Positions 1 to 28,642 of a stretch of 43,689 bases of DNA are shown in pieces (the first letter of the stretch is position 1; each line of letters opens with the position of its first letter). The stretch lies in NCBI GenBank assembly GCA_045576675.1, contig JAZNGX010000072.1, forward strand, positions 1 through 43,689, given 5' to 3'. A program made the position numbers and the translations under genes. The notes below the pieces were generated by a model, which had not been told where the DNA came from, did no database searches, and saw only the letters and a list, made by a program, of their open reading frames with translations. The DNA comes from Clostridia bacterium. Lineage in GTDB: Bacteria > Bacillota > Clostridia > Monoglobales > Firm-18.

Positions 1-26
1 CCAAGTGTTCTTAAGGACACTTGGGC

Positions 27-200
27 AGTTTTATTCGCCTTACGGCGAGTGCTATTGCTACGCAGTGATATTTGAACTTCGTTCAAGTGATATTGCCTTC
101 GGCAGTTTATGGCGAATTAAATATCACTGAAATCGTAAGATTTCAATACCACTTCCCCAAAGGGAAATATCACTCTGTGCGAAAAGCGCAGAATATCACT
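27..200. repeat. Composite palindromic element (REP/REPIN-like): 4 direct 9-mers plus 4 inverted 9-mers separated by mini-hairpins
   Basis: AGTTTTATT 27-35, AGTGCTATT 48-56, AGTGATATT 64-72 and 86-94; reverse-complement copies AATATCACT 120-128, AATACCACT 145-153, AATATCACT 166-174 and 192-200; short hairpins lie between them. Confidence 0.75.
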
Positions 201-211
201 ATATAAAAAGT

Positions 212-250
212 ACTACCCGAAAAATCTCTTCTTCGGGTAGTTTTTTGTTT
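212..250 (+). terminator. Intrinsic terminator-like hairpin
   Basis: ACTACCCGAA-N10-TTCGGGTAGT followed by a T-tract; an A-run precedes it, so it may act on both strands. Confidence 0.6.
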
Positions 251-423
251 TATACTGTTACAAGCAGGGAATTTGTGTGCCAAATTCCGTTTTTATTAAA
301 GGTAACTGTCCTTAGGGAACCTGTTCCTTGTCTTCGTCTTATGTTAAATACACTCTCATCACGGAGGAGGGCAGTATGGGGGCAGCAATTCCAAATATAT
401 TTAAGGTATGTAAAAAACTGAGC

Positions 424-25201: not shown

Positions 25202-26095
25202 ATGGGATCACTTATAAGACCATTCGGTATGTTTCTGAAATTATTATATGATTTGACCGGCAATTACGGCTGGGCATTGATTATATTTACGGTTATAGTT
25301 AACGTCGCTTTAATGCCTCTTAGCATAAAGCAGCAGAAATCAACTATGGCTATGCAGAAAATTCAGCCGAGAATGAATGAAATTCAAAAAAAATATCAAT
25401 ATGACAAAGAAAAGCAGAGTCAGGAAATGATGAAGCTTTATCAAGAATATAATATTAATCCAATGAGCGGATGCTTACCGCTTTTAATCCAGTTTCCAAT
25501 AATTTTGATTTTGTATCAGGCAGTATTGAAGCCACTAACTTATATGTTTGGTGCCACAGAGGGATTTACTCCTGCAGTTATTGAAAGCCTGATGGAAAAA
25601 GCAAGTGAAATTATAGGCAAGCCGGTTACATCGGAAATTCAGATTTTTTCAGTAGTAGACAAGCTGGGTGATTTGTGGCCACAGGGCGTTGAGGTTATGA
25701 ATTTTGACTTCTTTGGTCTTGCTCTAAATCAGACACCAAACTTTGCTGTTCCAAGCTTACTTTGGATAATACCTGTTGTTTGTGTACTTACAACTTATTT
25801 GTCATCAGCAATTATGACAAAGCAGCAAAATAAACAAAACAGTTCTGCAAACAATAACCCAACTGCTGATTCGATGAAAACTATGCAGACATTTATGCCA
25901 CTTATGACAGGCTTTTTTGCATTTACATTGCCTGCTGCACTTGGTTTTTACTGGACAATCGGTAATATAGTAAGATTATTCCAACAGTTGTATCTGAATT
26001 ATCGTTTTAAAAAGTTAACTGAATCGGAGGAACAGGAAAAGCTTAATGCCGGAACTGTGCATCCGTCTAAAAAGAAGAAGGGGAATAAGAAATGA
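25202..26095 (+). CDS. yidC: Membrane protein insertase YidC/Oxa1
   Basis: NYGWALIIFT, MQKIQP, NPMSGCLPLLIQFPI, LPAALGFYW. Confidence 0.95.
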   Translation: MGSLIRPFGMFLKLLYDLTGNYGWALIIFTVIVNVALMPLSIKQQKSTMAMQKIQPRMNEIQKKYQYDKEKQSQEMMKLYQEYNINPMSGCLPLLIQFPIILILYQAVLKPLTYMFGATEGFTPAVIESLMEKASEIIGKPVTSEIQIFSVVDKLGDLWPQGVEVMNFDFFGLALNQTPNFAVPSLLWIIPVVCVLTTYLSSAIMTKQQNKQNSSANNNPTADSMKTMQTFMPLMTGFFAFTLPAALGFYWTIGNIVRLFQQLYLNYRFKKLTESEEQEKLNAGTVHPSKKKKGNKK

Positions 26096-26889
26096 CAGAA
26101 CGTATAGAATTTGTTGCAAAAACAGTTGATGAAGCTGTTATGAATGCGATGAAGCATTTTAATGCAACAAGAGATAAAATTAACGTAAGAATTGTTGAAG
26201 AAGGGTCGAAAGGACTTTTTGGCTTTGGTGCAAAGGATGCAAAAATCGTTGTTTCATTAAAGGATGAAGCTGAGCTTGCTGCAGCAAAAGCAAAAGCTGA
26301 GGCTAAGCCCAAGGCAGAACCCAAGCCGAAGCCTGAGAAAAAAGCGCCTGTAAAGGCAGAAAAAGAAGAAATCGGTGAAGAAGAACCGGTAAAAGCTCCA
26401 AGAGAAATCAAAGAGCTGACTGAAGAAGCTGCCGCACATGGTGAGGTTGCTGCTGTTGAGTTTATGAATGGTTTGATTGAAAAGATGGGCGTTGATTGTA
26501 CTGTCACAACAGAACGTCAGCCTGACTGCATTAAAGTTATAATGCACGGAGAAGGTGTTGGTGCATTAATCGGCAGACGCGGCGAAACGCTTGATTCAGT
26601 TCAGTATCTTACAAATCTTTATGTGAACAAAAAACGCAGAGGCGATGATTATTGCAGAATAGTTGTTGACTCTGAAACATATCGTGCAAAACGTCAGGAA
26701 ACTCTTGTACGTCTTGCAAACAGTATGGCTGCAAAAGCTGTTAAATATCGCAAGGATATGTCTTTAGAGCCAATGACTCCTTATGAAAGACGTATAATAC
26801 ATGCTGCATTGCAGAATGTACCTAACGTTAAAACACGCAGTGTTGGTGAAGAACCAAACAGACGTATTGTGGTTATGTACAAGAAATAA
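26092..26889 (+). CDS. jag: RNA-binding protein Jag/KhpB/EloR
   Basis: Jag_N, LIGRRGETLDSVQYL (KH), PYERRIIH (R3H). Confidence 0.95.
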   Translation: MTERIEFVAKTVDEAVMNAMKHFNATRDKINVRIVEEGSKGLFGFGAKDAKIVVSLKDEAELAAAKAKAEAKPKAEPKPKPEKKAPVKAEKEEIGEEEPVKAPREIKELTEEAAAHGEVAAVEFMNGLIEKMGVDCTVTTERQPDCIKVIMHGEGVGALIGRRGETLDSVQYLTNLYVNKKRRGDDYCRIVVDSETYRAKRQETLVRLANSMAAKAVKYRKDMSLEPMTPYERRIIHAALQNVPNVKTRSVGEEPNRRIVVMYKK

Positions 26890-26902
26890 TTATAAATTTA
26901 AT

Positions 26903-27282
26903 AAGGCTGTCTCGAAATAGTGAAACTGTACTAAGCATGACAGAACTCGAACTGGATGTGGTTTAAAAGGTAAATTTTACGTCCACATGTGTTAAAATGC
27001 TCGTTAATATCGCATATTAACTTGCGCTTTTGCCTATGTGGACAAAAAATTTTCTCTTTTAAACTTCGTTAGAACCCTATCGCATAATTAAAATTTTGAT
27101 AGTTTGGTGCGTAAAAACGCAGGAAGGCTGACGCCTTTCAAGTTTGACAATCCGAAATAGCGAAATTTTAATATGCGAAGGGCATATCAAGTTCGGGTCC
27201 TGTTATGCCTGCAGGAGAAATGCCAAAATTGTACCGCTTTTAAATCGGTGTAGTTTGTCATTGACTTTTTCGGGGCAGCCTT
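26903..27282 (+). other. Large structured intergenic element bounded by imperfect inverted repeats (candidate ncRNA or MITE-like insert)
   Basis: AAGGCTGTCTCGAAA 26903-26917 pairs with TTTCGGGGCAGCCTT 27268-27282; several long nested internal helices. Confidence 0.7.
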
Positions 27283-27304
27283 TTTGTTTAGGTTGGTGAA
27301 TAAT

Positions 27305-28642
27305 ATGACTATTGCGGCAATTGCAACTGCTCAGGCATCAGGTGGTATCGGCATAGTGCGTTTGAGCGGTGAAAAATCAATAGAAATAGCAGATAAGCTC
27401 TTTTGCGGAAAGTCTGTAAAAGCTATGGAAAGCCACAAAATGCATCTTGGTAAAATCAAATATAACGGAAGTGTTGTTGATGAGGCGTTGGTTTGCGTAT
27501 TTAAGGCTCCAAACAGCTATACCGGTGAGGATGTTGTAGAAATACACTGTCACGGCGGGGTTGCAGTGTGCAGAATAGTGCTTGATGCCTGCATAGCAAA
27601 TGGTGCAATGCACGCAAAAGCAGGTGAGTTTACAAAGCGGGCATTTTTGAATGGTAAAATGGATTTGTCGCAGGCAGAAGCTGTTGCTGACCTGATTAAT
27701 GCACAAACTGAAAATCAGGTTAATGTTGCTGCCGCACAGCTTGATAAGAACCTGTCATCTGATATCTCAGCTTTACGTCAGAGTCTTGTTGATGCCCTTG
27801 GTCATCTTATGGCAACAATGGACTTTTCTGAAGACGGAGTTGAACCATATGAGTATGATGAGCTTATAGGTAATTTAAATAATGCATACGAAAAAACCAA
27901 CAAGCTTATTAAGTCATCAGAGGATGGAAGGATAATCAAAGATGGTGTTAACACTGCTATAATCGGTGCTCCAAATGCAGGTAAGTCCAGTCTTTTGAAT
28001 GCAATTTCAGGCGAGGACAGAGCTATTGTTACGGATATAAAGGGAACAACACGCGATGTGCTTGAAATATCGGTTAATATACGAGGCTGTAAGCTTAATT
28101 TGTTTGATACTGCAGGCATACGTGAGAGTGATGATACTATAGAGAAAATAGGAATTGAACGTTCCAAAAAAACTGTTGAGGCTGCTGATTTGATTTTCTT
28201 TGTTATAGACGGCAGTAAAGGCATAACTGCTGAGGAAGAAGAAATAATATCGTTTATTGATAAAAGCAAAACCATTATTATAATAAATAAGGACGACCTT
28301 GAACAAGTTGAAATTGACACACTGGGGTATATGGATAATGTAAGCATTTCAGCTAAAAATTCAAGTGGTCTTGAAAAGCTTTATGACATAATCCTTAGTC
28401 GCTATAACAGCATAGATTTGAAGGATAGAGTAGTTATTACAAATCCGCGTCACCGTGACAGCCTTGTTAGAGCAAACAGCCTTTTAAAAGGAATTATCGG
28501 AGATATTACGTCAGGCATACCTTTTGACATAATATTAAGTGATATGGAACTTGCAATTTCTGCTCTCGGCGAAATCGGCGGCGAAACTGTAAGTGATGAA
28601 ATTGTGGAAAACATTTTCTCTAATTTTTGTGTTGGTAAGTAG
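27305..28642 (+). CDS. mnmE: tRNA U34 modification GTPase
   Basis: TIAAIAT, GEFTKRAFLNGK, GAPNAGKSS, GTTRD, DTAG, NKDD, terminal FCVGK. Confidence 0.97.
   Translation: MTIAAIATAQASGGIGIVRLSGEKSIEIADKLFCGKSVKAMESHKMHLGKIKYNGSVVDEALVCVFKAPNSYTGEDVVEIHCHGGVAVCRIVLDACIANGAMHAKAGEFTKRAFLNGKMDLSQAEAVADLINAQTENQVNVAAAQLDKNLSSDISALRQSLVDALGHLMATMDFSEDGVEPYEYDELIGNLNNAYEKTNKLIKSSEDGRIIKDGVNTAIIGAPNAGKSSLLNAISGEDRAIVTDIKGTTRDVLEISVNIRGCKLNLFDTAGIRESDDTIEKIGIERSKKTVEAADLIFFVIDGSKGITAEEEEIISFIDKSKTIIIINKDDLEQVEIDTLGYMDNVSISAKNSSGLEKLYDIILSRYNSIDLKDRVVITNPRHRDSLVRANSLLKGIIGDITSGIPFDIILSDMELAISALGEIGGETVSDEIVENIFSNFCVGK

Follow-up and report, generated by a model that had tools for sequence, protein, structure and literature searches.

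The stretch analysed here, hereafter the window, is the 43,689-nucleotide (nt) contig JAZNGX010000072.1 of a Clostridia bacterium (GenBank assembly GCA_045576675.1), in which the genes jag and mnmE are separated by an extensively paired region of about 380 nt. [quoted passage not shown] Our comparison with related genomes indicates that the unit is composite, formed by an older hairpin of the host and a repeat inserted into it at positions 26934-27209. This repeat is probably an old and presumably immobile copy of a MITE-like, non-autonomous mobile DNA element. It belongs to a multi-copy family that is widely distributed in Clostridia, has defined boundaries, duplicates a TA at its target, occupies sites that are empty or independently filled in related genomes and has conserved its self-complementarity.

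The fold was evaluated on 416 nt (positions 26890-27305), with 100 dinucleotide-preserving shuffles as the null model. The minimum free energy (MFE) of the plus strand was -151.7 kcal/mol, compared with -92.95 +/- 5.24 kcal/mol for the shuffled sequences (z = -11.2), none of which equalled it; the minus strand reached -117.3 kcal/mol (z = -7.6). All helices listed in the original prediction are present in the MFE structure, so its claim of extensive pairing is borne out. Its statements that the paired region contains no open reading frame (ORF; none of at least 60 codons was found) and that a T-run (27281-27285) lies about 20 nt before the mnmE start codon at 27305 were correct as well. The unity of the 380-nt element did not survive: searches with the region by BLAST and nhmmer returned divergent copies (61-86% identity) elsewhere in the window's own genome, G000, and these covered only positions ~26933-27211.

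A family profile built from 11 copies gave 29 matches in G000 at E <= 0.01, 10 of them full length; the genome contains about 25 copies or fragments. Several of these matches end at contig ends, where copies that are 100% identical break the assembly. All copies are intergenic and none contains an ORF. The window copy itself is matched by the profile at positions 4-283 with an E-value of 2.9e-55. Beyond G000, BLAST detected the family in 15 of 41 related genomes (G000 counted); leaving G000 aside, these comprise 12 of 21 genomes of the same taxonomic family, 2 of 11 of a second family and none of 8 from five other families. We then relied on a diagnostic pattern of 32 positions at the apex of arm B, one of the two internal hairpins of the repeat; the pattern is strict, and the genome counts are therefore lower bounds. 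Within the order, 24 of 151 genomes carry it; for the class, the figure is 38 of 401 sampled genomes (at least 90% complete), distributed over at least a dozen families. The reversed pattern, used as a control, was found 0 times in every genome. Scanning public genome contigs retrieved at least 116 stretches. Among the matches listed, 114 were confirmed by nhmmer, and the two unconfirmed stretches come from one Saprospiraceae and one Rhizobiales record; the carriers are uncultured gut and rumen Clostridia, Oscillospiraceae, Acutalibacteraceae and Ruminococcaceae, plus one isolate; and the 111 full-length copies measure 245-290 nt, mostly 274-280 nt.

The isolate, represented by the draft genome G041 (stretch L086), harbors at least 24 full-length copies that are 84-100% identical to the query copy. 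Nearest-neighbour identities within genomes amount to 94-100% in G008, G032 and G016, 91-99% in G041 and 74.5-100% in G000; copies are 94-99% alike in G008 and 94-98% alike in G032, a genome that is 99% complete. Such identities indicate, at the level of sequence, a recent spread of the family. A copy also occurs on a phage-like IMG/VR contig (L164, ~1562-1908), where an unknown ORF and an endolysin-like gene flank it and where terminase, portal, protease and major head proteins are encoded as well, which suggests phage carriage as a route between hosts.

The insertion signature was best seen in G041, where 18 of the 20 recent copies examined have a TA on both sides, within the context TTAA in 10 cases and TTAT in 5. 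The ends of the element read AGC...GCT, and the bases outside the left and the right TA vary independently, so the duplicated unit is TA. A 4-bp TTAA duplication, as for piggyBac-like elements, was considered and rejected: the 5' side always reads xTAA and the 3' side TTAx, with x independent on the two sides. Abutting copies with a single TA in common were observed at 13 loci (L098, L156, L096, L030, L080, L066, L082, L119, L140, L149, L137, L150 and L101). Under a strict criterion, TA is kept on both sides in 72 of 115 copies; in 17 of these 72, the TA belongs to a TAA or TAG that terminates an ORF (60 codons or longer) right at the border of the element. The first base of the element being A or G, such insertions restore a stop codon. 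A direct repeat TGA takes the place of TA at a few loci, on both sides at L123 and on the 5' side only at L159 and L104.

Filled and empty versions of the jag-mnmE spacer could be compared directly. In G014 and G006, of one genus, and in G002, of another, jag is followed only by a short terminator and no repeat is present. The closest relatives, G017, G015 and G008, whose Jag proteins are 78-80% identical to that of the window, lack the repeat as well. In G018 and G016, the same spacer contains a family copy in the opposite orientation, located between the stop codon and the terminator and flanked by a TGA direct repeat; this copy is an independent insertion into the jag-mnmE spacer, in another genus. 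These copies (L170 in G018, L174 in G016) directly follow the jag stop codon, and the spacer is a repeated landing place. The jag-mnmE spacer of G008 (L168) carries, ~230 nt after the T-run, a different insert with the inverted ends TTAACCGAAACGAA ... TTCGTTTCGGTTAA, which is missing from the otherwise matching spacer of G015 and looks like a second MITE-like family also targeting TTAA or TA.

The three insert-free relatives also reveal what preceded the repeat. In G017, G015 and G008, the 5' strand of the outer stem is nearly letter-identical to that of the window, with more than 20 invariant columns in common over 26903-26924; the 3' strand matches, and a T-run stands right before the mnmE ribosome-binding site. 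The order of stem, T-run, ribosome-binding site and ATG is also found in G017 and G015. The spacer of G017 folds at -40.1 kcal/mol (z = -4.5) into a Y-shaped hairpin, in which an outer stem of 21 bp carries two inner hairpins. Since relatives that lack the insert have this hairpin, the T-run, the outer stem and the local hairpin at 27226-27256 are older features of the host, and not parts of one 380-nt element as originally predicted. In the pairwise alignment with G017, the left flank of the window reaches the first inner hairpin and the right flank resumes just after it, from which we infer that the repeat was inserted into the loop of this inner hairpin, within the Y-shaped hairpin with terminal T-run that already followed jag. 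The outer stem (26903-26917/27268-27282) followed by TTTTT resembles intrinsic terminators and intra-operon hairpins, and it is kept in the relatives without the insert; it differs from ordinary intrinsic terminators in that the loop of this predicted terminator now contains ~350 nt. The insert-free spacer is itself conserved over ~105 nt (L167, 1375-1500, minus strand, in G017, with the corresponding region of G015 and G008), its T-run abuts the ribosome-binding site of mnmE, and this hairpin may be an attenuator or a processing site in its own right.

DNA contigs of two other studies, X3 and X2, hold the repeat copy at the same site and cover both insert junctions: those of X3 span 26871-27164, with no differences, and 27172-27648, and that of X2 spans 26934-27507, with one difference. 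X4 and X5 yielded only fragments from other organisms, and no joint skipping the repeat copy was found in the DNA contigs of the four runs. The arrangement is not an assembly artefact, because the contigs of X3 and X2 cover both junctions.

The window copy shows the marks of age. Its identity to the nearest copy of the genome is 74.5%, its right TA has decayed to TG and its last base has changed, all of which point to an old copy; it is probably immobile now. Taken alone, positions 26934-27209 fold at -111.4 kcal/mol on the plus strand (z = -11.9) and at -93.5 kcal/mol on the minus strand. The features of the locus, where the gene order is yidC, jag, mnmE, mnmG, are collected in the table below.

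Features of the jag-mnmE region of the window, with the evidence on which each assignment is based
Feature	Position	Strand	Evidence
jag, Jag/KhpB RNA-binding protein	26092..26889	+	Pfam: Jag_N 1e-18, KH_KhpA-B 1e-13, R3H 1.1e-21
jag stop codon TAA	26887-26889	+	
Older post-jag hairpin, 5' strand, pairs with 27268-27282; outside the repeat family	26903..26924	+	Shared spacer columns
Outer stem	26903-26917/27268-27282	+	MFE structure
Left TA, one copy of the target-site duplication	26932..26933	+	TA flanks other copies
Repeat element proper, 276 nt, old diverged copy	26934..27209	+	Family profile, fold
Terminal helix P1, 5' strand (terminal inverted repeat)	26934..26953	+	Pairs with 27190-27209 in a helix of 19-20 bp
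Arm A, long imperfect hairpin	26961..27064	+	Consensus helix 3
Arm B, long imperfect hairpin, apex with the most conserved motif	27075..27182	+	Helices 6-11, diagnostic pattern
Diagnostic motif GGCT..GCCTT..GACAA, arm B apex	27126-27157	+	Pattern match
Terminal helix P1, 3' strand	27190..27209	+	Fold; P1 found family-wide
TG, decayed right copy of the TA duplication	27210..27211	+	Position matches right TA of other copies
Rest of the older hairpin's interior, including local hairpin 27226-27256	27212..27267	+	Alignment to the G017 spacer from CAGGGGA on
Older outer stem, 3' strand, and T-run (27281-27285), ~20 nt before mnmE	27268..27285	+	Fold
mnmE, tRNA modification GTPase, ATG at 27305	27305..28642	+	Pfam: TrmE_N 2.1e-43, MnmE_helical 5.5e-50, MMR_HSR1 2.4e-28

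Across the family, a terminal helix P1 of 17-49 bp is present in all 117 copies and encloses two long imperfect hairpins; sequence conservation is highest at the apex of arm B. In its outer half, P1 exists in at least 8 unrelated sequence types, and its inner half keeps a CGAAC/GTTCG core. Covariation was assessed on 115 copies with a 70-pair structure, 500 shuffles and controls in which the partners were slid. Paired cells amounted to 92.2%, compared with 73.5 +/- 0.3% in the shuffles, and the covariation score to 0.534, compared with 0.204 in the shuffles and 0.08-0.13 with partners slid by 1-3 columns; for both measures, none of the 500 shuffles was as high. Changes on both sides were found for 63 of the 70 pairs, and in consensus helix 3, which forms arm A, for 15 of 16 pairs, with 94.6% of the cells paired.

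Several copies depart from this architecture. Forms that have lost a module occur in G000 as P1 with arm A (C48), P1 with arm B (C63) and shorter versions (C130, C150 and C174). The C48 form (2006-2183), which retains arm A only, has 5' and 3' terminal repeats of different subfamily types and is thus a chimaera whose ends no longer pair well. A hint of a transposon-associated omega RNA at C63 was rejected, as the 419-residue ORF overlapped at its end is dinB (IMS family) and not TnpB. Compared with an otherwise identical copy on C41, the copy on C86 of G000 (1-292, minus strand) has 19 extra nt in arm A, and the copy of L083 (74-545) is interrupted by ~228 nt between positions 152 and 187 of the profile. 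The inner part of the P1 3' strand resembles the T-arm of tRNAs (GRTTCRANTYC) in 15 of 117 copies (for instance L056, L059, L137 and L080). A short-word BLAST of such T-arm-like P1 sequences against 26 tRNAs of G000 gave 26 matches, 22 of them on the T-arm in sense orientation, compared with 2.7 matches, 0.7 on the T-arm, for shuffled P1 queries; the likeness is confined to a minority of subfamilies.

The original prediction had read the G-U pairs of the plus strand as a sign of selection on a single-stranded RNA. For the window copy the excess itself stands, with 9 G-U and 2 A-C in the family consensus pairs and a better fold on the plus strand; as a sign of plus-strand RNA selection it fails, both across the family and in the antisense copies. 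Mean MFE values of the family are nearly equal, -107.1 kcal/mol on the plus strand and -104.8 kcal/mol on the minus strand, the plus strand being more stable in 72 of 117 copies. Counts made on pairs predicted by RNAalifold are circular (408 G-U and 86 A-C for pairs predicted on the plus strand, 89 and 399 for those predicted on the minus strand), and the strand counts were therefore taken on pairs defined by their Watson-Crick content. On this basis, there were 102 G-U and 114 A-C in pairs that are at least 80% Watson-Crick, and 198 and 157 at the 70% level. Among the copies located between co-directional genes, 31 are co-oriented with these genes and 22 opposed. Sense copies had 85 G-U and 59 A-C and antisense copies 74 and 23, both counted on the plus strand of the element; the antisense copies thus show no excess on the other strand, which argues against transcribed copies being kept as RNA. 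A covarying secondary structure is present; the signs expected of a single functional strand tied to transcription are not. Nothing here shows a function of one strand as RNA, and the conserved trait is self-complementarity as such.

The case for a MITE-like element rests on its short length and lack of coding capacity, its terminal inverted repeats, its target-site duplication and its dispersed copies that differ in presence and absence between genomes; here the second proposal of the original prediction is supported. The source of mobility was sought among known transposases. A duplicated TA points to the IS630/Tc1-mariner group, and the mix of TA and TNA duplications recalls some IS5 subgroups. 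The duplicated TA target of an IS630/Tc1-mariner derivative is in place; its DDE_3 transposase was not found in the six genomes searched.

A number of observations weigh against a conventional MITE. The IS630-type DDE_3 domain (PF13358) was found in none of six genomes searched (G000, G008, G016, G019, G032 and G041), while control genomes were matched. Among five genomes, DDE_Tnp_1 was found in none (one match on a small contig of G041 is unrelated to the element), nor was DDE_Tnp_1_2; Y1_Tnp was found in three, not in G008 or G032; rve was missing from G032 and present in G008 only below the cut-off; the TnpB zinc ribbon (PF07282) exceeded the cut-off in none, and IS110 (PF01548) in two, not in G008 or G032. 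Of the eight families of transposases or recombinases that were tested, seven are missing from at least two copy-rich genomes, the exception being serine recombinases, whose presence in all five genomes says little. No larger element bounded by the same ends, and no autonomous insertion sequence (IS) or transposase between matching terminal repeats, was found in 22 stretches scanned, which belong to draft genomes, so that this result is not conclusive. In a few copies, the flanking direct repeat is 3 bp long (TGA or TCA) and replaces TA. Conservation is the reverse of that of a classical MITE, since the terminal repeats vary (at least 8 types) and the interior, foremost the arm B apex, is conserved. 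Covariation throughout is unusual for a decaying transposon and also fits a folded nucleic-acid substrate or an RNA. Finally, 278 bp exceeds the size that PMC2229807 states for repeat elements of bacteria ("<200 bp").

The 22 stretches comprise 16 loci with matches to transposase families (Y1_Tnp or rve), where no piece of the element was found, and six G041 regions around partial copies, where no ORF is bounded by the ends of the element. When a G041 copy was compared by short-word BLAST with 10 loci of that genome that bear transposases, only chance words of 8-14 nt appeared. No conserved neighbour gene was seen, the flanks differing from copy to copy. A missing transposase is weak evidence, IS elements being often lost from metagenome-assembled genomes (MAGs); more weight attaches to the isolate draft G041, where the outcome was the same.

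These observations give some weight, if not much, to mobility by a structure-specific route, in which folded single-stranded DNA or a cruciform would be recognised by its shape by a putative enzyme, possibly host-encoded and single-copy, by analogy with REPINs and their RAYT, IS200/IS605-derived PATEs, and attC sites with IntI. Such a route, which we regard as unlikely, would explain a conserved fold with a free sequence in the terminal helix: covariation is very strong in all helices, P1 included, the at least 8 sequence types of P1 have one geometry, length is held at ~278 nt across many families of Clostridia, and no strand preference is seen, as expected if either strand folds. Highly alike copies also exist in G032 and G008, both without over-cut-off matches to seven transposase families, an argument tempered by the losses of IS elements from MAGs (again, G041 weighs more). 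Against it, a duplication of TA (sometimes TGA) is typical of the staggered cuts that DDE enzymes make, and HUH/Y1 enzymes leave no duplication; Y1_Tnp is, as said, not in G008 or G032; and no conserved neighbour gene was seen. A small chance may be given to a new enzyme that would recognise folded nucleic acid by its shape and cut it at TA, which would be REPIN-RAYT-like with a duplicated dinucleotide.

It is distinctly improbable that the repeat is a multi-copy structured RNA that would affect the jag-mnmE-mnmG transcript in cis, for instance by attenuating or stabilising it or by serving as a target of RNase III. The window copy taken by itself would favor this reading: it is co-oriented with jag and mnmE, its plus strand folds better by 18-34 kcal/mol with the above excess of G-U, and it lies within an intra-operon hairpin and would hence be transcribed if mnmE is read through from jag; moreover, Correia, ERIC and BOX repeats are reported to affect co-transcribed mRNAs (PMC2229807 and PMC3049150). 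The family speaks otherwise. It is strand-symmetric and shows no orientation bias relative to genes (31 versus 22), which speaks against the large noncoding RNA of the original prediction, and its G-U excess does not follow the transcribed strand. The copy in the G018/G016 spacer has the opposite orientation, close relatives have no copy at all, no promoter-like site was found in or near the window copy when 26700-27500 was scanned, and there is no Rfam match. Descent of the element from the guide RNA of a transposon (a bridge RNA of IS110 or an omega RNA of TnpB/IscB), with loops pairing to donor and target DNA, is disfavoured and highly improbable. Such RNAs are called to mind by its two stem-loops, whose internal loops are conserved, by its variable ends and by the core-like repeat of 2 bp on either flank; no copy adjoins a TnpB/IscB or IS110 gene, the TnpB zinc ribbon exceeded the cut-off in none of five genomes, and IS110 is absent from G008 and G032. 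Within one subfamily, targets have only TA and an A/T context in common, and Rfam offers no match here either.

According to PMC2229807, bacterial MITEs have terminal inverted repeats, end in 5'-TA-3', duplicate their target and fold into stem-loops. RUP of Streptococcus pneumoniae, Correia/NEMIS of Neisseria and ERIC/IRU of enterobacteria resemble the Clostridia repeat in being intergenic, ORF-less and multi-copy, with terminal inverted repeats, a TA duplication and long stem-loops, and are often co-transcribed with neighbouring genes (PMC2229807). They differ from it in length (~100-170 bp, compared with 278 bp) and in fold (a single hairpin, compared with a three-way junction); their distribution is limited to one genus or family, whereas the Clostridia repeat occurs in many families of one class, and only in the latter are the termini variable between subfamilies and the interior conserved. 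For RUP, an IS630 partner with matching ends has been proposed, whereas no IS630-type gene was found in the six genomes searched here. BOX of pneumococcus is likewise modular, with extensive secondary structure, as the module-loss forms C48 and C63 bring to mind, and is judged parasitic and yet likely to affect co-transcribed genes (PMC3049150). We saw no sequence relationship between BOX and the Clostridia repeat, and BOX is restricted to a few streptococci, unlike the latter. The BOX modules boxA, boxB and boxC are arranged in line. REPINs with RAYT and IS200/IS605-derived PATEs are hairpin-forming, long-lived and non-autonomous, and their shape matters to the enzyme that moves them, whose gene can be single-copy and unlinked; they depend on a Y1 HUH transposase and make no target duplication. 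The Clostridia repeat departs from them on both counts, since it duplicates TA and not every carrier has a Y1_Tnp match.

Under the preferred reading of a MITE-like DNA element, the repeat would move as DNA by means of a putative transposase acting in trans and cutting TA sites of A/T context with a stagger of 2 bp, rarely 3 bp. Insertion would be tolerated in short intergenic spacers and at stop codons, and also inside RNA hairpins, where self-closure of P1 would reunite the strands of the host hairpin. Because P1 closes the element on itself, the jag-mnmE hairpin and its T-run probably still work as in the relatives, possibly as a leaky intra-operon terminator or a stabiliser; this is suggested by the T-run of the relatives, which also ends ~20 nt before mnmE, with no promoter in between. 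The arms were presumably kept self-complementary by the need of the transposing lineages and not of the jag-mnmE locus.

Further annotation of the window added little at this locus. ARAGORN found no tRNA and no transfer-messenger RNA in the window, and the sole terminator-like site in the scan of 26700-27500 was a weak hairpin on the minus strand, at the apex of arm B. Searches of Rfam 15 at gathering scores returned no match to the jag-mnmE region, and an E-value mode search of 26700-27500 and eight other copies gave only noise of the microRNA type, far below gathering scores. The only match elsewhere is a Gut-1 RNA (RF01706) at the very start of the window (26-98, plus strand; E = 1.7e-07, 51.8 bits for a gathering score of 50), which is a genuine match to a motif whose function is unknown. 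No description of the repeat family was found in the literature searched, in keeping with the "undescribed" of the original prediction; supplementary tables, such as those of PMC8040213, might list it.

What appeared to be a large regulatory RNA is thus very probably a mobile repeat in an older hairpin, and should not be annotated as a riboregulator of mnmE. The local finding being mostly explained, the repeat family is the more useful result, being long, constant in length, strongly covarying and common among the uncultured Clostridia of gut and rumen. MAG assemblies break at its copies, inside which several contigs of G000 end, and screens for structured RNAs will repeatedly pick it up as a false "novel noncoding RNA". 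The repeat proliferates without any of the transposases predicted by its TA duplication, and the question of its mobilising enzyme is directly testable in a cultured carrier, the isolate of genome G041.

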